A stretch of 64,000 nucleotides of DNA, taken from Archaeoglobus sp. JdFR-37 (GTDB lineage Archaea > Halobacteriota > Archaeoglobi > Archaeoglobales > Archaeoglobaceae). The DNA is taken from the NCBI GenBank assembly GCA_002010215.1, contig MTMY01000002.1, positions 9,728-73,727 on the forward strand, given 5' to 3'. Position numbers and translations under genes: made by a program. Position 1 is the stretch's first letter. Each line of letters opens with the position of its first letter. Below the pieces are notes generated by a model, which worked only from the letters and a program-made list of their open reading frames with translations, was not told the DNA's origin and did no database searches. Shown here piece by piece: positions 28,928-59,188 of this stretch.

Positions 28928-29184
28928 AGTGTTTAACCCTGCTTTTATTTTTTATTTGAATTAATTGTGTGAATTGTTTTGTGCTTTCTTGCCATCTCTC
29001 CAATCTAAATGAAGTTAGACAGTGAGTTTAGTCGCCGTGTTTAGCTCATTCTACCAATTCCCTACTTACAATTTCACTATTTTACAAAAGCATCACCTGC
29101 CCAGTGTCACCCTGAGTCACAAATTAACAATCTAACGCCCGATAAAGCGAACATTTATATTCCCATAATTTTTCCGGCTTAAAG

Positions 29185-29859
29185 ATGGCTGGAATAAGCC
29201 AGTTTGACCCCCAGCTTTTTGTAAAAATCCTTCCAAGTCTGGCATACGGAGCGTATATTACCGTAAAGCTCACTTCCATTTCCATTCTCCTTGGGCTCAT
29301 CCTAGGAACCATTCTAGGGATGGGCAGAATCTCCAAAAACCCCCTCTTCTTCAGCATCTCCACATCTTACGTTGAATTCATCAGGGGCACACCCCTTCTG
29401 GTGCAGATAATGATTGTCTACTACGGCCTGCCAGCAATAGGCCTGAATCTCCCAGCAGAACCGGCAGGAATTTTGGCTTTAACCCTGAACAGCGGAGCCT
29501 ACATCGCTGAAATCATCAGGGCGGGTATTCAGAGCGTTCCTAAAGGCCAGATGGAGGCGGCAAGGTCCCTGGGGATGACATACCTGCAATCCATGAGATA
29601 CGTCATATTTCCACAGGCATTCCGAAACGTTTTACCAGCTCTCGGAAATGAGTTTATAGCCCTGCTCAAGGACTCATCCCTTCTCTCAGTCATAGCAATA
29701 GCAGAACTCACAAGGGTTGGGAAGCAGATATACTCCACAACCTTCAATGCTTGGACTCCGCTGCTGGGCGTAGCCCTTTTCTACCTTATGATGACTCTTC
29801 CCCTTAGCAGACTTGTAAATTACGCCCAGAGGAGGATTGGTGGTCATGAGCTTGCTTAA
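29185..29859 (+). CDS. Polar amino acid ABC transporter permease (His/Glu/Gln/Arg/opine family)
   Basis: EAA-loop region [24 protein letters not shown]. 224 aa. Confidence 0.9.
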
Positions 29860-30577
29860 AATAATTGATCTCCACAAATATTTCAGAGAGAATCACGTTC
29901 TCAAGGGTATAAACATGGAAATCAAAAAAGGAGAAGTGGTGGTGGTAATTGGCCCTTCTGGAAGCGGGAAATCTACTCTGCTCAGATGCATAAACAGGCT
30001 TGAGGAGCCAGACAAGGGGAAAATAATCATTGACGGCGAAATAGAGATTACCCACCCGAAAGCCGACCTGAATAAGATCAGACAAAGAATAGGAATGGTT
30101 TTCCAGCAGTTCAACCTCTTCCCTCACCTCACAGCCCTTCAGAATATTACCCTTGCACCTATTAAGGTAAAGAAGATGCCAAGAGATGAAGCTGAAGCTC
30201 TTGGAATGGAATTGCTGGCAAAAGTTGGTCTTGCTGATAAAGCCCATGAGTACCCGCATCAGTTAAGTGGAGGGCAGCAACAGAGGGTTGCCATAGCCAG
30301 AGCCCTTGCCATGAATCCCGAGATAATGCTCTTCGATGAAGTTACCTCTGCTCTGGATCCTGAGCTTGTCAAGGAAGTGCTTGACGTCATGAAGCAGCTG
30401 GCAAGAGACGGCATGACCATGCTTGTTGTTACCCATGAAATGGGCTTTGCAAGAGAGGTTGGGGATAGGATCGTTTTCATGGATGAGGGGGTTATAGTTG
30501 AGGAGGGTAAGCCTGAAAAGATTTTCACAGACCCCCAGAATGAAAGGACAAGAAAGTTCCTCAGCATGATACTGTAG
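29837..30577 (+). CDS. Polar amino acid ABC transporter ATP-binding protein (GlnQ-like)
   Basis: Walker [10 protein letters not shown], signature [15 protein letters not shown], Walker [12 protein letters not shown]. Confidence 0.9.
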
Positions 30578-30671
30578 TCTGGATTATCCTGCTTCACGCA
30601 ACCTCCAGCGGGTTAAAAAGTAAAAGTTCTTATACCCCAGCCTTCGGAAGGGCACAGCCAGAGGTGATGAA

Positions 30672-31766
30672 ATGAGTAGTTTCGTTCCACATAATATACC
30701 GGCAGAACCTGTTCCAGCCATCGCTTTTGGCCTCGGTCTCATTTTCGTTCTGGTTCTGGTTCTCCCTTTCAGAGTCAGAAAGGTGGAGGAGAACCTTGAG
30801 CCCTTCTTCTTCGTCATGGGGATTTTTGCCGTTACAGTCTCAGGTCTGTGGAGTCAAGAGCTGGTGAAGGAAGCAGTAATTGCTCCAGTAAGCATCGGCG
30901 GTCTGCCAATAGGCATATTTCAGGTTGTTCTTCTAGCTGGGCTGTTCATTCACTTTTTCAATCGACAGATTTATTCAGCAATTCTTGCACTTCTGGACAG
31001 AATAGGGCTGAAAGCCTTTATCTTCATATTTGTTGCATTTCTCGGCCTCATCTCAAGCCTGATATCTGTGATTGTCACAGCGGTCATAATGGCTGAAGTG
31101 ATTGCAGCGCTTCCAATTGACAGGAAGAAGAAGGTGGAACTGACCATCATTACCTGTTTCTCAGTAGGAATGGGTGCGGCCCTTACACCAGTAGGTGAGC
31201 CCCTCTCCACTATTGCCGTATCAAAGCTCAAGGGAGAGCCATACCATGCAGACTTCTTCTTTCTGATTAACCTCCTCGGAATCTACATCATCCCCGGTGT
31301 TCTTGCACTGGCGGCCTTTGCAACCTTATACATCTCAAGAGGGGTTAAGGTGGAAAAAGCAGAGCTTCCCGAATACACCGAATCCCTCAGGACGGTGATA
31401 GTAAGAGCTCTAAAGGTCTATCTTTTCGTTGCTGCTCTGGTTTTCCTCGGAGGCGGTTTCACACCCCTGATAATCTGGTACTTCACAAAAATACCGCCAG
31501 CGATTCTTTACTGGGTCAACATGATTTCAGCCATCCTAGATAATGCAACCCTCGCTGCTGCAGAAATCGGCCCATACCTTGAGATTCACCAAATAAAAAG
31601 TGCTCTGCTGGCTTTGATAATATCTGGAGGTATGTTGATTCCAGGAAATATCCCGAACATCGTCGCTGCCGGGAGGCTTCGTATAACAAGTAAAGATTGG
31701 GCAAGGCTGGGCGTTCCTCTGGGTCTAGTAATAATGCTGATTTACTTCGTTATTCTGATGATCTGA
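30672..31766 (+). CDS. Polytopic membrane protein, DUF1646-like putative cation transporter
   Basis: 364 aa with about 10 TM helices. The family call is from memory of archaeal DUF1646 proteins and is tentative. Confidence 0.45.
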   Translation: MSSFVPHNIPAEPVPAIAFGLGLIFVLVLVLPFRVRKVEENLEPFFFVMGIFAVTVSGLWSQELVKEAVIAPVSIGGLPIGIFQVVLLAGLFIHFFNRQIYSAILALLDRIGLKAFIFIFVAFLGLISSLISVIVTAVIMAEVIAALPIDRKKKVELTIITCFSVGMGAALTPVGEPLSTIAVSKLKGEPYHADFFFLINLLGIYIIPGVLALAAFATLYISRGVKVEKAELPEYTESLRTVIVRALKVYLFVAALVFLGGGFTPLIIWYFTKIPPAILYWVNMISAILDNATLAAAEIGPYLEIHQIKSALLALIISGGMLIPGNIPNIVAAGRLRITSKDWARLGVPLGLVIMLIYFVILMI

Positions 31767-31874
31767 TATCAGACAACATTTTTGAATTTTTAAATTCTTG
31801 TGATTCCTCTTTCCAGAATCAAATAGTTTCTGTTTTCGGCACTATTTGGAATCATGTCATCAAATTGCTCCGTA

Positions 31875-32771
31875 TCATCTTTCAATTCTCACTGGCAGGA
31901 AGTACTCATATCTTCTGCCAGCTATTGTGGTGAAAAACCTGTGTATCTTTCTAGCGTTCAGATAGAGACTCCAGATTGATGCATCGCTGTCGTAGTACTT
32001 TTTAACTTCATCATAGGTAAGAGGCTCAATACCTCTCTCCCCGAAATAATCGCTGGCAATCTCAACCAGTTTCGGAATAGCATCACTTCTCCTCTCCTTG
32101 AATAGATTGGCGATTAGGTCGACAACCACAAGCCGGAAATCGAAGTACCTATCGAGTATCTCCTGGAGAAACATTTTCTTGAGAATTGTTCTCAAAACTG
32201 GAGGTGCAGCTCGCAGAAAAACCTCAGCATTTATCTGATGCTGTCCATTTATTCTGACCATGGGCGTGCTTGTATCAAAGTAATGAAGCTCCTCATCCTT
32301 TAGAGCCCAGTTGGATATCTGCCCATCAATCCCTATCTCAACTCCCTGATTTTCTTCGTTGAATTTCCAGACTTTCTCAAGCTCTTCTATGATGTCAATG
32401 AAAATCTGAGTTATATCCTCATGCTGATGGATGATTTTATTACACACTTGAGAAGGGTTAACCTTTTCCTGAACGATGTAAAGCACAGCCTTTCCATCTT
32501 TCCTCAGGACATAAGTGGCATGGCTCTTCAGCAACCTCATCCCTGCATTCCTAAGAAGAGACTCATAGTAATCGAACAGCTCAATGTAACCCTTTACTTC
32601 TTCCTCTGATTTGAAATTTGGAATCCTCTTGAAAGCAAACCCTGCATACTCTGGAATTTCGAAGACAACACTTATCTCACCGTATCCGAGGACGTTTATT
32701 CTGTACTTGCTTCTACCCCTTGAAGGATCAAGGTTCTCCTCAAAATCCAGAAGAAAATCTTCGGGAATCAT
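31875..32771 (-). CDS. Protein-kinase-like fold protein (APH/choline-kinase-like small-molecule kinase candidate)
   Basis: Gly-rich loop LGYGEISVV, Lys in FAFKRI, catalytic-loop-like IDGQISN (Dx4N) and metal-binding YFDTS. 6 nt downstream of the aminotransferase and in the same frame. Confidence 0.45.
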   Translation of the reverse strand: MIPEDFLLDFEENLDPSRGRSKYRINVLGYGEISVVFEIPEYAGFAFKRIPNFKSEEEVKGYIELFDYYESLLRNAGMRLLKSHATYVLRKDGKAVLYIVQEKVNPSQVCNKIIHQHEDITQIFIDIIEELEKVWKFNEENQGVEIGIDGQISNWALKDEELHYFDTSTPMVRINGQHQINAEVFLRAAPPVLRTILKKMFLQEILDRYFDFRLVVVDLIANLFKERRSDAIPKLVEIASDYFGERGIEPLTYDEVKKYYDSDASIWSLYLNARKIHRFFTTIAGRRYEYFLPVRIER

Positions 32772-32777
32772 ACGGAA

Positions 32778-34049
32778 TCATACCAGCATTCTTATCATTC
32801 CAAGCAGGTCCTTTCTCTGAGATGCAAACTCCATCACCTTTTGCAGGTGCTCGAGAATATAGCTTGCGTGCTCCCCTCTGATTATGAGGGGTGGCAAAAG
32901 CTGAAGCACAGATGTATCGTTGTTGGCATAGACAGCAAGGATCCCGTTCTGATAACAAGCTATAGACATGAGCGGGCCGTAGGCGGGATCACTCATTTTA
33001 ATCCCAATGAAAAGTCCTTTCTGTCTTATCTCCTCTATAAAATCAAACTCGTTCCTCAGCCTGTCAAGCCCAGCTGAGAGTCGCTGCCCCATTTCCACTA
33101 CATTATGGAGAAACTCTCTGCGACTGATGATTTCTATCACCTTTTCCGCTACAACACATCCTACCTCAGCTCCACCGAAGGTTGACACGTGGATGAACGG
33201 ATTTTCCATCATGAAGTTGTCAAACTCATCTCTGAAGCAGGTTGCAGATATGGGATAAACTCCACCTGACAGGCCCTTGGCGGTGACAATCACATCGGGC
33301 TCGACACCGTAATGCTCTATACACCACATTTTTCCAGTTCTCCCAAGCCCTGTTTGCACCTCATCGAGAATCATCAAGGCACCCTTTTCATCGCAGATCT
33401 CCCTCACTCTCTGGTAGAAGTCTACTGGCGGTAAGGGCATGCCAAGGGTGGCGGGAATGGTTTCGAAAATCACTCCTGCTGTTTCGCTGTCAACAGCCTT
33501 TTCCAGTGCCTCCGCATCTCCAAATGGAACTTCAACGAAGCCGGGAGCTAACGGTTCGAAGAGTTTCTTATACTTTTCATCTCCAGCAGAAAGAGCAAAG
33601 CCGGTGTGACCGTGATAACCGCCTCTGGCATAAACAATCTTTTTTCTTCCTGTATAACCTCTTGCAAGCTTTATTGCAAAATCTACTGCTTCTCCACCAC
33701 CAACTCCGAACACAACTCTTTCCATTCCCGGCATGGTTGAGAGGAGCTTCTCAGCCAGGGATGCGCGATGTTCGCTGATGAGGTGATGGTTTCCGATGTC
33801 CAGCTCGTCCAAAGCCTTCTTGAAAGTTTCAATTATTTCAGGATGTCTGTGACCCAAGTTAAAAACGCCACCATTGCAGTGGCAGTCCATTATCTTCCTG
33901 CCATCCAGATCCCAGTACCATACTCCCTCTCTTTTTGCAGGGACGAAGTCTATTCCTGCAAGGCTGAAGAATCTGGCTTTTGCAGGAGAAACGTGTTTTG
34001 CAAAGGAATTTATGACTTCCTGCTTGGACATTCTTCCGGTAAAGGTCAT
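32778..34049 (-). CDS. Class-III PLP-dependent aminotransferase (putrescine/ornithine/acetylornithine aminotransferase-like)
   Basis: LMILDEVQTGLGRTGKMW and PLP-lysine DVIVTAKGLSGGVYP. 423 aa. Confidence 0.9.
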   Translation of the reverse strand: MTFTGRMSKQEVINSFAKHVSPAKARFFSLAGIDFVPAKREGVWYWDLDGRKIMDCHCNGGVFNLGHRHPEIIETFKKALDELDIGNHHLISEHRASLAEKLLSTMPGMERVVFGVGGGEAVDFAIKLARGYTGRKKIVYARGGYHGHTGFALSAGDEKYKKLFEPLAPGFVEVPFGDAEALEKAVDSETAGVIFETIPATLGMPLPPVDFYQRVREICDEKGALMILDEVQTGLGRTGKMWCIEHYGVEPDVIVTAKGLSGGVYPISATCFRDEFDNFMMENPFIHVSTFGGAEVGCVVAEKVIEIISRREFLHNVVEMGQRLSAGLDRLRNEFDFIEEIRQKGLFIGIKMSDPAYGPLMSIACYQNGILAVYANNDTSVLQLLPPLIIRGEHASYILEHLQKVMEFASQRKDLLGMIRMLV

Positions 34050-34218
34050 AATTTATGCATTTATTTGTAGGATATAAGTCTTGTTTATAGATTGCAGTGT
34101 CTAGTCGATCCGTAATTGCCTTTTACAAGAGCCGACAACTAGGTTCTCTTTGCGCAAAGCTTACTGACATCCAAACCAAAAAACAAATGGAATTCTGTAG
34201 TAAAAACATGATATAAAA

Positions 34219-35394
34219 TCAAATGAAAAGGCTTTTTATATCCCACAGCAACCGGGGATTCTTCTTTACAAGCTCAAGAACCAGCTTTTTCACGCTCATC
34301 TCGCCAAGATTATAGCCTGCAATGCTTCTTGCCAGTTTGTTGAGGGTTTCGTCATCCATTTTTATGAACTTTTGCTGCAGTATCTTGTTCCTGTGAAGGC
34401 TCTTTCCAAAGTCGTTTTTCCATAGCTCATCATACTTCCTCAGCATTATCGCCGAGAAGTCTCCTTTTTCAACGGCCTCTTTCGCAACCGTTCCGGCGAA
34501 GTAACCAGCTTTCATAGCATTTGCAATTCCTCCACCAGTAATAGGGTCTGAATGTCTAGCAGCATCTCCAGCAAGCATCACATTATCGGCCACAGCAGTC
34601 TCTATAGGTCCTTTTACCGGCACTCCGCCAACCACAACTTCCACTACTTCTCCTTCGGGGAAGACCTCTTCCATAAATCTGTCAAGATACTCTTTTGGGC
34701 TCCTATCGGCCATTGACGGGAGTACACCAATCCCTACATTAGCTGCAGAATTTCCCTTGGGGAAAAGCCAGATGTAACCACCAGGAGCGATGCTCTTTCC
34801 CAGCCAGAAGTACGTGTATTCGGGGTCGAAGTCAATTCCCGTAACTAGATACTGGACGCAACTCTCTATTTCTCCAAGCTTAAGCGTCGTGTCTATGCCT
34901 GCCCACTTCCCAACCCTACTCTCCACACCATCGCATCCGATGACTATCTTTGTTTTAGCATTAAAATTCTCACCCATACTCCTCATGGAGACCTCAACGA
35001 GCCCATCCACTCTCTTTATACCTGTAGCAGTGGTTTTTACTAGAACATTTGCTCCAGCCTTAGCCGCCAATCTTGCCAGATGTCTGTCAAATATTTTCCT
35101 CTCAAGAACGAAGCCAACCTCGTTGCCTGCCATCTCTTCCCCCATCACGATCTCAGTGCCGTCGGGAGCGTACACCTTTGCCCCCACCACTTCAGCAGCA
35201 ATCCAGCGTCTGTCTATCTCAACAAATTGCTGAATTGCCTCCTTGCTCACGCCCTCGGCACACCTAACTGGAACACCTATCTCCTGCCTTTTCTCAATTA
35301 AAAGAACGTCCAAGCCATTCTCCGCTGCTGTTTTTGCTGCGAGGCTTCCTGCAGGCCCTGCACCTATTACAACAACATCGTAATCAGTCTTCAT
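34219..35394 (-). CDS. Digeranylgeranylglycerophospholipid reductase (geranylgeranyl reductase, paralog 2)
   Basis: [19 protein letters not shown] fold, RCAEG and [17 protein letters not shown] motifs. 4-nt overlap with the upstream ferredoxin gene. Confidence 0.85.
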
Positions 35395-35576
35395 TCTTCA
35401 ACCTCCAGTGCCTGCATGGGACATGTCTTTACACATGCCATACAGAGGGTGCACTTATCCTCATGAATCGTGAGGAACGTTTCAACCAGTTCGTTTGCAT
35501 CGAACTTGCATACAGCAACACACGCTCCGCAATAAGCACATCTGTAACGGTTTATTGAGATGCGCCGCATAAGCAA
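35391..35576 (-). CDS. 2x[4Fe-4S] ferredoxin (61 aa), likely electron donor to the downstream reductase
   Basis: [11 protein letters not shown] and [12 protein letters not shown] cluster motifs. Translationally coupled to the GGR gene. Confidence 0.8.
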
Positions 35577-35657
35577 AGTTCAGCAGTTAATTAAAAAAGT
35601 TAATCCTTTGTGCTTTTATAAAGTACTTACAACTCCGTTATAAAAAAAGAAAAAAGA

Positions 35658-37055
35658 TTAATCAGCTTCTGGGGGTTTCATTAGATACGCCAGAATCAGT
35701 GCAATCAGAGTCATTGTGCCTGAAGCTGCGTACGCAACCTCGTATCTGCCGGTTATGTCTCTGATGAACCCTGCCAGCTGAGGTCCAAGCAGACCAGCTG
35801 CACCCCATGCCGTGAACAGCACTGCGTAGTTAAAGCCTAGGTTCTTAGCTCCGAAGAAGTCAGCACAGTATGTTGGCATCAGTGCCAGAACACCACCGTA
35901 GGCGAGACCGACCAGTATAACTGCAATGAAGATGCCTGCAACTCCAAGAGCCTTCACCAGTGCTAGGAACGAGTACATCATTATGGTCATCAATGCAGCA
36001 TCCAGCATCAGTGCGTTTCTTCGTCCTATCTTGTCTGAAAGGCCTCCAAAGCCCGGTCTGCCGAGACCATTGAAGAGTGAGAGCATGCCCACAGCAATAA
36101 CACCTGCTGTGGTTCCCATCATTGGTAAGTCTGCTCCGTACTCCTTAGCAACAACTTTCATGTGGCCTATTGTCAGCAGACCAGCTGCAGCCATGAACCA
36201 GTACCAGAACCATAGCATCCAGAACTGCTTCGTCCTGATCATCTCTCTCCATTCGTAGTCCTTATGGGCAACATGAACCTTGGCCTTCTCGGGCTCCTCG
36301 GCTGGTTTTGGTGGAGTCCATCCCTCAGGCACCCAGCCCTCCGGTGGGAACTTAAGCACTGCACCAGCAGCAGTAATAACGATCAAGAAGAGAATACCGA
36401 GATACAGGAACGCGTAGCTCCAGCCAAAGTTAAGTATCAGTACAACCGATGGTGGAGCTAGGAAGAGAGCTCCCATACCGAAACCCATCACGGTCAGACC
36501 AACTGCCAATCCTGACTTATCCGGGAACCAACGTCGTGCTATAGGAATTGGCACGTTATACGCCAGCCCTATACCGAGACCACCAATAATACCGTACCAC
36601 AGATACAACCAGTATAATGTCCCGTAGTTAAATCCAACTCCTCCTCTCTCCTCAATTATTACTTTCTCCAGCGTCTTCTTGTCATTGATTACAAATGTCT
36701 TGCCATTTACGGTTACTTCCTTACCCAAGAACTGCTTGCTGGTTGGGTCGGCAAATATGAACTCCGGATCGGCAAAAGCTCCTCCGAAGCTTGTCATTAT
36801 CCATCCCAGAGCCAGCAGAACTCCTCCTACCCATACCACTTTCCTTGGTCCCCACTTGCCAAGCAAAAGTCCGCCTATTAGCATACCGGGTGCGAAGAAC
36901 GCGACGACCAGAGTAAAGGCTCCCGAAGACATTGCTCGAGTCCAGCCAAAAATGCTCTCAAGAGGGCCAATGAACACTGACCAGCTGTAGATGACGCCCA
37001 GCATCAGGTTTATCAAGAACCCCGCTAGAAGGTAAATCCATCTGTTCGTAGCCAT
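35658..37055 (-). CDS. MFS transporter, oxalate/formate antiporter (OFA) family-like
   Basis: 465 aa with 12 TM helices and a central insertion. N-terminal RWIYLLAGFLINLMLGVIYSWSVF is typical of the OFA family. Confidence 0.8.
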   Translation of the reverse strand: MATNRWIYLLAGFLINLMLGVIYSWSVFIGPLESIFGWTRAMSSGAFTLVVAFFAPGMLIGGLLLGKWGPRKVVWVGGVLLALGWIMTSFGGAFADPEFIFADPTSKQFLGKEVTVNGKTFVINDKKTLEKVIIEERGGVGFNYGTLYWLYLWYGIIGGLGIGLAYNVPIPIARRWFPDKSGLAVGLTVMGFGMGALFLAPPSVVLILNFGWSYAFLYLGILFLIVITAAGAVLKFPPEGWVPEGWTPPKPAEEPEKAKVHVAHKDYEWREMIRTKQFWMLWFWYWFMAAAGLLTIGHMKVVAKEYGADLPMMGTTAGVIAVGMLSLFNGLGRPGFGGLSDKIGRRNALMLDAALMTIMMYSFLALVKALGVAGIFIAVILVGLAYGGVLALMPTYCADFFGAKNLGFNYAVLFTAWGAAGLLGPQLAGFIRDITGRYEVAYAASGTMTLIALILAYLMKPPEAD

Positions 37056-37294
37056 ATCACCACCTCTTTTTTAACGATTAAACATAAACGAATTGTCATA
37101 TTTATAATTTTCTGAACCATAAATGAATTTTGTAAAATATAGCCTTTTTGTTCTCTAGTATCAAAACTCTTAAATACTAAGATACCAATTAACTAAATTA
37201 AACTAACTATAAATAGTTATCGGTATAAAATACCGCAATCCTTAAATATGAAAATTGTATGAATTAAACATGTAATTTCTGGGAGGTGTGATGT

Positions 37295-37888
37295 GTGACA
37301 GAAAAAGATGTTGAGCTATTTCACCCAGAGAAGCAGATTGAAGTGCAAAGGGAGATCTGGGCCAATCCGGCAACACTTGGATTGATGGGCTTCGCCCTGA
37401 CAACAATGGCCACAGGACTTCACAATGTGGGATATTGGGGAGCTGGACCGACTCTCGCCATGGCACTTGCCTTTGGTGGAACTGCACAGTTCTTCGCTGG
37501 TGCCATAGCCTTTAGAAAGGGTGCAATGTTCCCCGGCACCGCCTTTTGCTCCTATGGTGCCTTTTGGTGGTCGCTGTTCTTCATGCTCTTCGTCCTACCG
37601 ATGGGCGGTGTGAAAATCGATGCAGCCCAAGAATTCGGGTTCTTCCTGATGTGGACATTGTTTACACTGCCGTTCGTAATTGCTTCGATTAAACATGGAA
37701 AACTTTTGTTCATTCTGTTCGTCCTGCTGGAAATAGCCTTCATACTGCTAGACTTAGTTACACTGGGAACCCTCAGTGCAGTGGCAGCTGGATGGGAGAT
37801 ATTCATAACTGGCCTGCTGGCCTGGTACATCGGCGCCGCAGATCTCGTCAACCACGACTTCGGAAGGGAAGTGCTGCCCAATCCATAA
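37295..37888 (+). CDS. GPR1/FUN34/YaaH-family acetate/succinate channel (SatP-like)
   Basis: Signature NPATLGLMGFALTT. Six TM helices. GTG start after the GGGAGGTG RBS. Confidence 0.85.
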   Translation: MTEKDVELFHPEKQIEVQREIWANPATLGLMGFALTTMATGLHNVGYWGAGPTLAMALAFGGTAQFFAGAIAFRKGAMFPGTAFCSYGAFWWSLFFMLFVLPMGGVKIDAAQEFGFFLMWTLFTLPFVIASIKHGKLLFILFVLLEIAFILLDLVTLGTLSAVAAGWEIFITGLLAWYIGAADLVNHDFGREVLPNP

Positions 37889-55430: not shown

Positions 55431-55499
55431 TTCTTTTTTACTTCTTTTTACTTCATTTTCTCCTTTTCCCCATTCCTCGCTTCCCCTTCACGATTAACT

Positions 55500-56537: not shown

Positions 56538-58221
56538 AAGTCACCACCCCGAGGTTGTAGGCGAAATGTAGTAGGGTTGCAGCCACGTAGGCCAGCCAGT
56601 ACCCCTTTGGATTCAGGCGAATCAGGTAGCTGAAAAGCAAAAGGGTAGAAACGTGGAGGGCAAGGGGTAACACCAGCATTCCAGCCATCATAGCGTTGCT
56701 GAAGATACCAGCATCAACAACCACCAGCAATTTCTCAAAAATCAGGAAAGTTATGCCTCCAACAACCCCTGCTTTCCACCATTCCAGTCCATTCCTGATG
56801 GCTGAGTGCAGAGCTACAGTCTTGAAGAACTCCTCTACTGCGGCGATGGTCATGAGGAAGAATGGGATGGAGACGTGAAGCGGAAAGGCAAAGAGGGTGG
56901 TTGCGAGCATGAACTCTACCATGAAAATAGGTGCTATTGACAGCCCCATGTAAGCTATGAGCGAAGGGTATCCCGTCACTACCCGCCTGCACGCCTCCAG
57001 AAACCTCTCTACAATTCCACCCTGATACTCAAGAAATTCAGCATCCAAAGCTCTTACACATATCAGGCTGATAAAGATGAATGCAGCAAAAAACTGGAGG
57101 GTGGAGACGAAGTATTCTCTGAGAGTCACCGTTTCTCCTTCGAGGTTTGAAAGGAGGAGAGTTATGGGAGAGACTTTACTGAAGGGCACCGTTCCTGCAA
57201 ATATAGCAGGGATGAACAGGTATCCAGTTATCACAAGAGACGATACCAAGATTAGGAACGTCATCTCCTTATAGCTTCTTGAAAGCAGGGCAAACAGCGT
57301 CTGGATGGAGAATAAAAATAGAAGTGGAGGAAGAATGTAGAGTGCTGAACTAGGATTTGCCAGAAGGATTGATGAAAAGAGGACGAGAGAAGTGGATAGC
57401 AAAAAATAGGGCAGCATTTTACCCAGCAGTATGTCTCGGGGAGAAAGAGGCGTTGAAAGAAGAGACACAAGCCTCCCGCTGAACCTGTCTTCTATAAATG
57501 AGGAGGAATAAACTTGAATAGCGAAATATGACGGGAGGATCAGGAGAAATGCATAAATCATCTTTCCCATGAGGCTCGGTGGCGAAAAAGTCGATGGGGT
57601 CGTGTATCCTTTCTCACCAAAGATGAGCTTTCCAACATCAAAGGTTCTCTTTTCTCCTCCCGATGGAATTTTAGGCTCCGGGGTGTGCTCAGGTATTCCG
57701 CTTTTCTCCTTGGGTTTTCCAACTTCAGTTTCACCTCTCTCAACAGCCTTTCTGACCTCCTCAAGGTTGACGGTGCCAGAAGGGGTTGCGATGTGCCCAC
57801 GATCCACGTAAACAGCCCTAACAAAAACAGGATACGCTTTCTTTCCATACCTCTGATACAGAAACTCCTCAAAATCTGATCTTATAGCCTTAATCAATTC
57901 CTCAGTTGCTGCAAGAGACTTTTTGCTGCCAGAGGTGATTACGTAAAGAGTGCCATCAAAACCCAAGTAAACATCTGCATACTCTTTTTTCACCGTTTCT
58001 CTCCCTTCTGGTGGTTCAGCATGGAAAGTTATGAATCTCGAATCCTTCAACTCTATTTGAGTGGCTGCGGTGTACATCATGTAATCGGATTTAAAGCCTG
58101 AAAACGACATGATGGCTGAAAGGGCAGCGAATGTTATCAGGAGGAGGAGCAGGAAGGTGAACCTCTTTCCGTACTTCTTTCTTGATTTCTTTATCTCCAG
58201 AAGGGTTACTTTTAGCATCAA
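56524..58221 (-). CDS. Fusion membrane protein: ABC-2 permease-like N-terminal half plus CPBP (CAAX/Abi) intramembrane protease-like C-terminal half
   Basis: ABC-2 pattern LLSTPLSPRDILLGKMLPY. C-terminal AAVEEFFKT (EExxxR-like) and HFAYN (HxxxN) motifs. Confidence 0.5.
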   Translation of the reverse strand: MMLKVTLLEIKKSRKKYGKRFTFLLLLLITFAALSAIMSFSGFKSDYMMYTAATQIELKDSRFITFHAEPPEGRETVKKEYADVYLGFDGTLYVITSGSKKSLAATEELIKAIRSDFEEFLYQRYGKKAYPVFVRAVYVDRGHIATPSGTVNLEEVRKAVERGETEVGKPKEKSGIPEHTPEPKIPSGGEKRTFDVGKLIFGEKGYTTPSTFSPPSLMGKMIYAFLLILPSYFAIQVYSSSFIEDRFSGRLVSLLSTPLSPRDILLGKMLPYFLLSTSLVLFSSILLANPSSALYILPPLLFLFSIQTLFALLSRSYKEMTFLILVSSLVITGYLFIPAIFAGTVPFSKVSPITLLLSNLEGETVTLREYFVSTLQFFAAFIFISLICVRALDAEFLEYQGGIVERFLEACRRVVTGYPSLIAYMGLSIAPIFMVEFMLATTLFAFPLHVSIPFFLMTIAAVEEFFKTVALHSAIRNGLEWWKAGVVGGITFLIFEKLLVVVDAGIFSNAMMAGMLVLPLALHVSTLLLFSYLIRLNPKGYWLAYVAATLLHFAYNLGVVTFVLA

Positions 58222-58267
58222 AATGTGGTCAAAACCACTAAATATATGTTTAACCGTTATTAATCTT

Positions 58268-59107
58268 GTGCTGAAAGTTGAGGGTTTGAGAAAGGTTTAT
58301 GGCGATATAATTGCCGTTGATTCCATCAGCTTTCACCTTGAGAAAGGAGAAATCCTCGGACTGATCGGTGAGAACGGAGCTGGCAAGTCCACAACTCTCA
58401 AAATGGTTTCGGGGCTTATAAAACCCGATGCCGGGAGAGTGGAGTTTTCTGGGAAAGAGCTGTTTTCCAATCTGAATGAAATAAAAATGAGAATAGGGTA
58501 CCTTCCCGAATTCGATGCCCTCTATGATGGGATGACCGCTAAAGAATACCTGATGTTCTTCTCTTCCCTCTATGGTGTAGAGGGCGCCCAAGCTGAAGAG
58601 AGAGCTGAAAAGCTTATGGAGATGCTCAAAATACCTTCCGATCGAAGACTCGGGGCTTTCTCCAAAGGCATGAAGAGAAAGGTATCCATCGCCAGAACTC
58701 TCATGCACGATCCAGAATATCTGATATACGATGAGCCTACCGGCGGGCTGGATCCGGGCACATCCCTTTTCATTGCCGAATTTCTTGGTGGGTTGAGAGA
58801 TGAGAAAAAATCAATCATTTTCTCCGCCCACAACATGTATTACGTGGAATCGGTCTGTGACAGGGTTGCAATAATGAAAAAGGGTAAGCTCATCTATTTC
58901 GGTGATATTGACGAGCTAATAAAAGCTGGCAGAAAATACGTGATCGTTTACTCTGAAAATGGCCGAGAGGAGAGGATGACCACTGAAAGTATTGATGAAC
59001 TTAATAGAATTTTGAGGGATGTAATTTCCTCTGGAGGGAAAATACTGAAAGTAGAGCCTGAAGTCATGAGACTGGAAGATGTGTACTTTTCTCTGGTTGG
59101 GAAATAA
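58268..59107 (+). CDS. ABC transporter ATP-binding protein (ABC-2 subfamily)
   Basis: GTG 58268 gives (M)LKVEGLRKVYG. Walker A GENGAGKST, signature FSKGMKRKV, Walker B LIYDEPTGGLD. The upstream part of the 332-aa ORF overlaps the divergent gene. Confidence 0.9.
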   Translation: MLKVEGLRKVYGDIIAVDSISFHLEKGEILGLIGENGAGKSTTLKMVSGLIKPDAGRVEFSGKELFSNLNEIKMRIGYLPEFDALYDGMTAKEYLMFFSSLYGVEGAQAEERAEKLMEMLKIPSDRRLGAFSKGMKRKVSIARTLMHDPEYLIYDEPTGGLDPGTSLFIAEFLGGLRDEKKSIIFSAHNMYYVESVCDRVAIMKKGKLIYFGDIDELIKAGRKYVIVYSENGREERMTTESIDELNRILRDVISSGGKILKVEPEVMRLEDVYFSLVGK

Positions 59108-59188
59108 GTGGAATATAAGTGGAATGACTGGGTAAAAGATATATTACATGTGATGTAAAACAATTCCAAAGGAGGTGATGGTGTGGCG

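Follow-up and report, generated by a model that had tools for sequence, protein, structure and literature searches.

Two genes of Archaeoglobus sp. JdFR-37 lie in one reading frame with little more than a stop codon between them, and the locus raises the question of what their products do together and whether their close apposition matters. Within the 64,000-nucleotide stretch of contig MTMY01000002.1 (assembly GCA_002010215.1) that we analysed, hereafter the window, the minus strand carries a gene for a class-III pyridoxal 5'-phosphate (PLP) enzyme of 423 amino acids (aa) and, directly downstream of it, a gene for a 298-aa protein of the Pfam family DUF6206 (Table 1). A preliminary description of this DNA had proposed that the two form a kinase plus phospho-lyase or kinase plus aminotransferase pathway, and that the pair might be recently split or fusable by readthrough. 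We find that the pair is a real, widespread and uncharacterised module, best described as a version of the known kinase/phospho-lyase theme that draws on other lineages of kinase and of PLP enzyme, and that the junction is an ordinary slippage duplication without sign of recoding.

To our knowledge, amino-alcohol kinase/phospho-lyase systems are the sole recurrent precedent for a kinase-fold protein that is paired or fused with a class-III-fold enzyme. One such pair, for 1-amino-2-propanol, belongs to the RMM microcompartment of mycobacteria. Others are ethanolamine kinase with ETNPPL (AGXT2L1) and hydroxylysine kinase (HYKK/AGPHD1) with PHYKPL (AGXT2L2), as attributed to Veiga-da-Cunha et al. 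2012 where that work is cited in PMC8154272. Racemases, a decarboxylase and lyases are all known among enzymes of the class-III fold (PMC8154272; names of Protein Data Bank (PDB) entries). DUF6206 was not mentioned in the literature that we searched, and the phospho-lyase papers there gave nothing on the PLP-enzyme family linked to it.

Results

The two genes form a conserved module

A scan of one genome per prokaryotic species yielded 80 loci encoding a DUF6206 protein, which span Archaeoglobi, Thermoproteota, many Asgard lineages and about ten bacterial phyla (Chloroflexota, Thermodesulfobacteriota/Myxococcota, Actinomycetota, Bacteroidota, Bacillota and others); the family as a whole comprises about 830 clusters at 50% identity. 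An orthologue of the PLP enzyme, 42-76% identical to it, adjoins the DUF6206 gene on the same strand at 69 of the 80 loci, in Archaea as well as in Bacteria, with the PLP-enzyme gene preceding the DUF6206 gene at 50 loci and following it at 9. Within the class Archaeoglobi, DUF6206 is present in 11 of 81 genomes, and those 11, and no others, have a PLP-enzyme orthologue (E <= 1e-90), in every case contiguous with it. The two proteins also diverge in step: over 56 loci their pairwise identities are correlated with r = 0.78, compared with values of at most 0.16 in permutations. When we took the readthrough product as the length template, we recovered one true fusion cluster (P0123, 751 aa), in which DUF6206 is N-terminal and Aminotran_3 is C-terminal; no further fusion was found among the best 150 library representatives. 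The pair is strongly conserved, which supports the preliminary description. There is no general third gene, in that no other neighbour family occurs at more than 7 of the 80 loci.

The distribution of the pair is patchy. It occurs in 4 of the 20 Archaeoglobi genera, and neither gene is present in the sole other genome of the window's genus, which fits an accessory catabolic or salvage function. In two of the 11 Archaeoglobi genomes (G043 and G074) the PLP-enzyme orthologue contains two in-frame TGA codons and the DUF6206 gene is split or interrupted by stops; both are lower-quality assemblies, so errors of sequencing, and not a joint decay of the module, may account for the disrupted genes.

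The PLP enzyme lacks the carboxylate-handling residues of ordinary transaminases

The 423-aa protein matches the Pfam family Aminotran_3 over its full length (E 5e-92; 309 bits against a cut-off of 30.5), and the Schiff-base lysine K258 together with D229 and Q232 is invariant in 60 orthologues, leaving the cofactor residues intact. In fold and cofactor site it is a class-III, fold-type I PLP enzyme. It matched 69 NCBIfam models, and the 25 with the highest scores all stay below their cut-offs; the best scores are those of PigE (300 against 850), argD (289 against 410) and PatA (279 against 612), and it falls in none of the named equivalogs among them (PigE, ArgD, PatA, LysJ, OAT, PbfA and others). 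Its nearest relatives of solved structure are PatA/YgjG (PDB 4uox, E 2e-70) and PigE (PDB 4ppm, E 8e-64), a resemblance that points to a terminal primary amine as substrate. With PatA/YgjG and the transaminase domain of PigE it has in common an N-terminal extension and the motifs GxFNxGH and DEVQTGxGRTG; unlike it, neither of these enzymes is known to have a kinase partner, and its scores lie far under the equivalog cut-offs of both.

In an alignment of the 60 orthologues to four reference transaminases (ArgD of the window genome, and ArgD, PatA and GabT of E. coli), we compared three positions that handle the substrate carboxylates. In OAT numbering these are R180, where Arg or Lys follows HG; E235, the Glu within EPxQGEGG; and R413, a C-terminal Arg that precedes PPL. 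All four reference transaminases keep R/K, E and R. In the DUF6206-linked family, by contrast, the equivalent of R180 is H148, a His in 50 of the 60 orthologues; that of E235 is T201, which lies within ETIPATLG and is Thr in all 60; and that of R413, in the R-x-x-P-P-L motif, is Q383, with Gln in 51 orthologues and Lys in 9. The difference holds for PatA as well, which has K, E and R where the family has H, T and Q. Other residues, namely K24, R40, G60 and H88-H89, are invariant in the family and specific to it. Judged by these residues, the enzyme would not qualify as a glutamate/2-oxoglutarate-dependent omega-aminotransferase of the ArgD, OAT, GabT or PatA kind, and the loss of the residues that bind glutamate and 2-oxoglutarate suggests that it does something other than ordinary transamination.

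We compared the same positions with those of two validated phospho-lyases, human ETNPPL (PDB 6tor) and an Arthrobacter phospholyase (PDB 5g4i); the human ETNPPL sequence is exactly that of residues 1-441 of 6tor_A. ETNPPL has H, C and K and the Arthrobacter enzyme N, T and K at the positions where the DUF6206-linked family has H, T and Q(K), and the S/T-R loop of both lyases aligns with the invariant H88-H89. The proposal of a phospho-lyase is strengthened by this comparison, because the PLP enzyme is without all three carboxylate-binding residues of the glutamate/2-oxoglutarate transaminases.

In maximum-likelihood trees, the DUF6206-linked family forms one clade (support 100/99) on a long stem, outside ArgD, GabT, PuuE and BioA, and is sister to the two lyases (92-93/88), in a grouping that joins two long branches. 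Housekeeping ArgD/LysJ enzymes have the same fold and are about 33-35% identical to the PLP enzyme, but they lie outside its clade, and the window genome has a separate ArgD-like gene with canonical residues, as well as a HemL-like gene, elsewhere. The PLP enzyme is therefore not the housekeeping ArgD/LysJ, which was a possibility that the preliminary description had held against itself.

DUF6206 is a predicted member of the protein-kinase-like superfamily

The 298-aa protein matches Pfam DUF6206 (PF19709; E 1e-31, 110 bits against a cut-off of 30.4), as do all 30 of the homologues that we aligned with it, and no NCBIfam model matches it. An AlphaFold2 model built on this 30-sequence alignment has a pLDDT of 92 and a pTM of 0.90. 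When the model was compared with the PDB by Foldseek, all 50 of the matches listed were kinases or pseudokinases, nearly all of them eukaryotic-type protein kinases; PKR, PknG, AAK1, GAK, EGFR and WaaP are among them. The best E-value was 5.9e-6, the probability was 1.00 for many kinases, and 325 matches had E <= 0.001, with TM-scores to the PDB kinases of 0.32-0.43.

Six residues with kinase-like spacing (G29, G31, K48, D149, N154 and D166) are invariant in the 30 diverse homologues. G29-x-G31, in the GYGEIS loop, lies between strands 1 and 2, and K48 is on the third strand; D149-x4-N154 comes after a long helix (residues 121-140), and D166 is twelve residues past N154. There is no conserved alphaC Glu. 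Helices make up the whole C-terminal half, which has many invariant aromatic, acidic and basic residues. On the strength of the modelled bilobal fold, together with a Gly-loop, a beta3 Lys, a Dx4N motif and a metal-binding Asp, we assign DUF6206 to the protein-kinase-like (PKL) superfamily.

The predicted kinase fold is visible by structure comparison alone and not by sequence. No kinase Pfam family was matched at E <= 10 by any of the 30 DUF6206 members, the APH/choline-kinase family PF01636 included, and searches of PDB sequences with the single sequence (phmmer) and with a 30-member profile returned no kinase. We conclude that DUF6206 is a very divergent PKL member, predicted to be catalytically competent, outside the APH/choline-kinase family. 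Atypical small-molecule kinases of the PKL superfamily (APH, choline/ethanolamine kinase, WaaP, Kdo kinase and fructosamine-3-kinase) are like DUF6206 in having the bilobal core, Gly-loop, beta3 Lys and Dx4N motif, a metal-binding Asp 12 residues past the Asn and an all-helical C-terminal substrate domain, and one of them, WaaP, is among the Foldseek matches. They differ from it in that no sequence homology is detectable, in that the alphaC Glu is not conserved in DUF6206 and in its invariant C-terminal end, ...LP-x-x-I-x-R. The preliminary description had seen the landmarks of a protein-kinase-like/APH fold in this protein: the kinase-like fold and its predicted catalytic residues are borne out by the model, the Foldseek matches and the invariant positions, whereas membership of the APH family is not.

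Two features of the family may be noted here. Nearly all DUF6206 homologues stop exactly at ...Y-x-x-x-L-P-x-x-I-x-R, the invariant Arg being the last residue (positions 31875-31900 of the window encode this C-terminus), and in the fusion P0123 the terminal Arg leads straight into the linker to the PLP domain. A tail that is invariant to its last residue suggests insertion into an active site or an interface. A sizeable subset of the family (P0139-P0212, 400-527 aa) bears an N-terminal extension of 110-210 aa, in which a Pfam scan found no domain.

A proposed two-step route and its alternatives

The lyase-like substitutions, the absence of conserved further pathway genes, the patchy and transfer-like distribution and the resemblance of the PLP enzyme to PatA and PigE fit a kinase/phospho-lyase mechanism. 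We propose that the pair would be a self-contained, horizontally mobile two-gene module. DUF6206, whose protein-kinase-like fold has diverged far, would use ATP to phosphorylate a small molecule, most likely at the hydroxyl of a primary amino alcohol that resembles ethanolamine or 1-amino-2-propanol; ethanolamine or aminopropanol would be the obvious candidates. The PLP enzyme would then form an external aldimine and bring about the 1,2-elimination of phosphate from the neighbouring carbon, and aldehyde, ammonium and phosphate would be the products, as in the known kinase/phospho-lyase pairs. We consider it far more likely than not that both proteins work on the same small molecule. The observed fold, catalytic motifs, synteny, co-occurrence, rare fusion and altered active-site residues are best read as a kinase and a phospho-lyase that would act in turn on an amino alcohol. 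Kinase activity, phospho-lyase chemistry and the kind of substrate are what we infer in this reading, and we put its chances at about even.

The module is like the known amino-alcohol kinase/phospho-lyase pairs in that the gene for a kinase-like-fold protein adjoins, or is fused with, that for a class-III-fold PLP enzyme, in that the PLP enzyme is without Arg/Glu/Arg and has His, Thr or Lys where the lyases have H/N, C/T and K, and in its self-sufficient two-step logic. Several observations weigh against the phospho-lyase reading, some of them differences from those same pairs. DUF6206 has no sequence-level match to APH/choline-kinase or to any other kinase family, and its best structural matches, with modest TM-scores, are protein kinases and not small-molecule kinases. 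The PLP enzyme is nearer to true transaminases: it is 34% identical to PatA, with a score of 240 bits, as against 26% and 148 bits for ETNPPL; it is likewise 26% identical to 5g4i, again with a lower score than to PatA, and its top NCBIfam scores are to PigE, ArgD and PatA. Most DUF6206-linked enzymes have Gln at the R413 position where the lyases have Lys. Long branches lie on both sides of the sister grouping with the lyases, and the approximately unbiased (AU) test does not reject a clade of the DUF6206-linked family with PatA (p = 0.535). Finally, 11 of the 80 loci have DUF6206 without an adjacent aminotransferase-like gene. Of the ideas with which this work began, then, the phospho-lyase chemistry gains from the loss of the transaminase triad, as in the two lyases, but by similarity the enzyme is nearer to PatA than to the AGXT2L/ETNPPL clade and its partner is not an APH-family kinase; the enzyme stands in a clade of its own outside ArgD and GabT, and its place beside the lyases in the trees is tempered by the unrejected alternative with PatA.

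The same similarities would suit a genuine aminotransferase that acts on a terminal amine or aldehyde, either with an unusual amino donor or acceptor or with its carboxylate site moved (for example to the family-specific K24, R40 or R95), while the kinase phosphorylates what it consumes or makes, as part of a short route of biosynthesis or salvage. Highest similarity to PatA, PigE and ArgD, PLP-binding residues that are all intact and the outcome of the AU test are compatible with such an enzyme, and the new invariant basic residues K24 and R40 could stand in for the lost arginines. However, the three dual-recognition residues have been lost together over the 60 orthologues, and no further pathway gene is conserved beside the pair, whereas a biosynthetic route normally needs more genes; we regard this alternative as unlikely, though worth keeping in view. 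Triad loss tells solely what the PLP enzyme is not, and the range of reactions hosted by the class-III fold would also accommodate a racemase, epimerase, aminomutase or decarboxylase, for which DUF6206 would supply or remove a phosphorylated intermediate or use ATP otherwise, for instance in adenylylation. Yet the known class-III racemases and decarboxylase use alpha-amino acids, need a carboxylate site and have no known kinase partner, the phospho-lyase pair being the sole recurrent precedent for one that we know of, and a reaction of this sort seems to us rather improbable.

The structural matches of DUF6206, protein kinases at the top, would agree with a DUF6206 that acts not on a metabolite but on the PLP enzyme, which it would regulate or assemble with, whether as a protein kinase or as an inactive scaffold; strict co-occurrence and one fusion are also what would be expected of a regulator and its target. 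Such a role is nonetheless quite improbable, given a C-lobe that appears to be without an activation segment or APE-type platform, an all-helical domain that seems closer to those of small-molecule kinases, and the 11 loci at which DUF6206 has no PLP enzyme beside it.

If the kinase/phospho-lyase reading is true, it gives a first function to DUF6206, which is found in many uncultured anaerobes including Asgard archaea, it adds a new kinase family to the protein-kinase-like superfamily, and it means that phospho-lyase chemistry evolved more than once within the class-III fold through the same kind of active-site losses. The two genes are at present annotated as 'aminotransferase' or '4-aminobutyrate aminotransferase' and 'hypothetical protein', so that, on this reading, metabolic reconstructions of these organisms mis-assign the PLP enzyme. 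A fuller version, which we offer tentatively and at somewhat less than an even chance, is that DUF6206 founds a new family of amino-alcohol kinases, that its obligate partner is a phospho-lyase which arose from a PatA-like transaminase independently of the animal and actinobacterial AGXT2L-type enzymes, and that the pair makes up a compact deamination route in which phosphorylation is followed by elimination. Horizontal transfer would have carried this route into the Asgard archaea, the Archaeoglobi, the Thermoproteota and some ten phyla of bacteria, and it would serve a B12-independent use of ethanolamine-type compounds in anaerobes.

The junction between the two genes

Positions 32860-32700 of the minus strand read ...ATG CTG GTA TGA TTC CGT ATG ATT CCC GAA..., that is, ...MLV-stop-F-R-MIPEDF... 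The TGA of the PLP-enzyme gene (32780-32778) and the ATG of the DUF6206 gene (32771-32769) are separated by a 6-nucleotide (nt) spacer that keeps both genes in one reading frame, and they lie in a perfect 10-nt tandem duplication (Table 1), the upstream copy of which holds the TGA and the other copy the ATG. The preliminary description had these positions, the spacing, the common frame and the repeat right, and the motifs that it quoted for the two proteins (DEVQTGLGRTG, TAKGLSGG, GYGEISVV, FAFKR, IDGQISN and FDT) are all found in the window translations.

At four Archaeoglobi loci (L004, L005, L007 and L010) the junction is an ATGA stop/start overlap (...ATG CTA TGA AGG..., a gap of -4). Deletion of one repeat copy from the window junction would leave ...CTG GTA TGA TTC CC, which is the same ATGA arrangement, and the arithmetic agrees: an overlap of -4 plus 10 nt gives the observed spacer of +6. 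We suggest that neutral replication slippage, by way of the 10-nt tandem duplication, turned an ancestral ATGA overlap into the 6-nt spacer, and that the common reading frame of the two genes would be incidental. Against this stands the closest relative available, L087, whose DUF6206 is 86% identical and whose junction reads GTA AGG TAG C ATG, so that the ATGA ancestor of the window lineage is one that we infer and do not observe. To judge from these junction sequences, the position of the junction is evolutionarily labile. The window contains three perfect tandem duplications with a unit of at least 10 nt, where first-order Markov simulations of its sequence give an expectation of 0.12, an excess which indicates that the duplications are real slippage events and are not peculiar to positions 32764-32783.

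A functional junction, at which readthrough of the TGA gives, or before a recent split gave, a fusion of about 83 kDa with the PLP enzyme first, is a highly improbable alternative. The single frame, with just TGA and two codons between the genes, and the existence of a fused homologue elsewhere (P0123) speak for it. But of the 50 orthologous pairs in which the PLP-enzyme gene comes first, 19 have both genes in one frame, where one third is expected (p = 0.55), which is the chance rate; the relatives that we examined have separate or overlapping genes; and the sole natural fusion has the opposite order, with DUF6206 preceding the PLP domain. An Rfam scan of window positions 29000-37500 found no match, and RNA folding at the junction is no more stable than that of shuffled sequence (z = 0.39). 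With an in-frame arrangement at the chance rate and no stimulatory RNA element, the junction is not classed as a programmed readthrough or recoding site, and the notion of a recently split or readthrough-fusable pair is not upheld. An apparent 807-aa fusion at L079, with the PLP-enzyme part ahead of DUF6206, was rejected: the aminotransferase-like gene lies in another frame there, and the fusion is an open-frame artefact of high GC content.

An ATG (32781-32779) survives in the upstream copy of the repeat, where it and the TGA overlap as ATGA. The 13-codon open reading frame (ORF) that begins there is out of frame with the two genes and ends at 32740, overlapping the real DUF6206 start; it may be a decoy re-initiation site, to which some re-initiating ribosomes could be diverted. 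The DUF6206 junction would be a tidy example of a short slippage duplication that uncouples an ATGA overlap without harm to either gene.

Two perfect tandem duplications lie elsewhere in the window, one with a 10-nt unit at 55435-55454, in the spacer between convergent genes, and one with an 11-nt unit at 59104-59125, spanning the stop codon of ORF 58109-59107. Short slippage duplications in this genome seem to survive just at gene ends and spacers; the duplications persist at sites where breaking a frame is harmless.

Table 1. Coordinates of the gene pair, its junction and adjoining elements in the 64,000-nt window
Feature	Position	Strand	Evidence
DUF6206 protein, 298 aa; divergent protein-kinase-like fold (predicted), candidate small-molecule kinase	31875..32771	-	Pfam, AlphaFold2 model, Foldseek, alignment
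Atypical class-III (fold-type I) PLP enzyme, 423 aa; candidate phospho-lyase	32778..34049	-	Pfam, 60-orthologue alignment
Perfect 10-nt tandem duplication, GGAATCATAC x2 on the plus strand (GTATGATTCC x2 on the minus strand)	32764..32783	.	Sequence read, tandem-repeat scan
Out-of-frame 13-codon ORF, MIPYDSRRFSSGF-stop	32740..32781	-	Read from sequence; shares its frame with the last part of ORF 32740..32958
A/T-rich stretch with TATA-like elements (...ctataaacaagacttatatcctacaaataaatgcataaattATG), just upstream of the PLP-enzyme start; possible promoter	34050..34110	-	Sequence alone

Neighbourhood of the pair

The A/T-rich stretch that precedes the PLP-enzyme gene may serve the two genes as an archaeal promoter of their own.

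Some neighbours recur at a minority of loci. A secernin-like Cys-Ntn hydrolase (Pfam Peptidase_C69, starting MCDT...) lies directly beside the pair at 6 of the 80 loci, in some bacteria (for example L038, L053, L054, L059 and L076); the window genome has no Peptidase_C69 gene. An AMP-binding acyl-CoA synthetase of about 584 aa is found at 7 of the 80 loci, in Thor- and Hermodarchaeota (L017, L036, L037 and others), where it and a small membrane protein are encoded directly downstream of DUF6206 on the opposite strand. Neighbours of these two kinds faintly suggest that the precursor could be amide-linked, for example an N-acyl amino alcohol.

Five loci of Promethearchaeota (L024, L031, L044, L052 and L058) have DUF6206 without an adjacent aminotransferase-like gene and keep genes for a D-2-hydroxyacid dehydrogenase, a HAD-type phosphatase-like protein and an ADP-forming CoA-ligase-like protein near it. 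This subgroup may represent a second context for the DUF6206 kinase.

Just upstream of the pair, positions 34219-35576 of the minus strand contain a gene of the geranylgeranyl-reductase family (391 aa, like digeranylgeranylglycerophospholipid reductase) and, preceding it with a 4-nt overlap, a 61-aa ORF resembling 4Fe-4S ferredoxins. The linkage is not general, and distant homologues of this reductase lie about 3-4 kb upstream of the pair at two other loci, L011 and L025.

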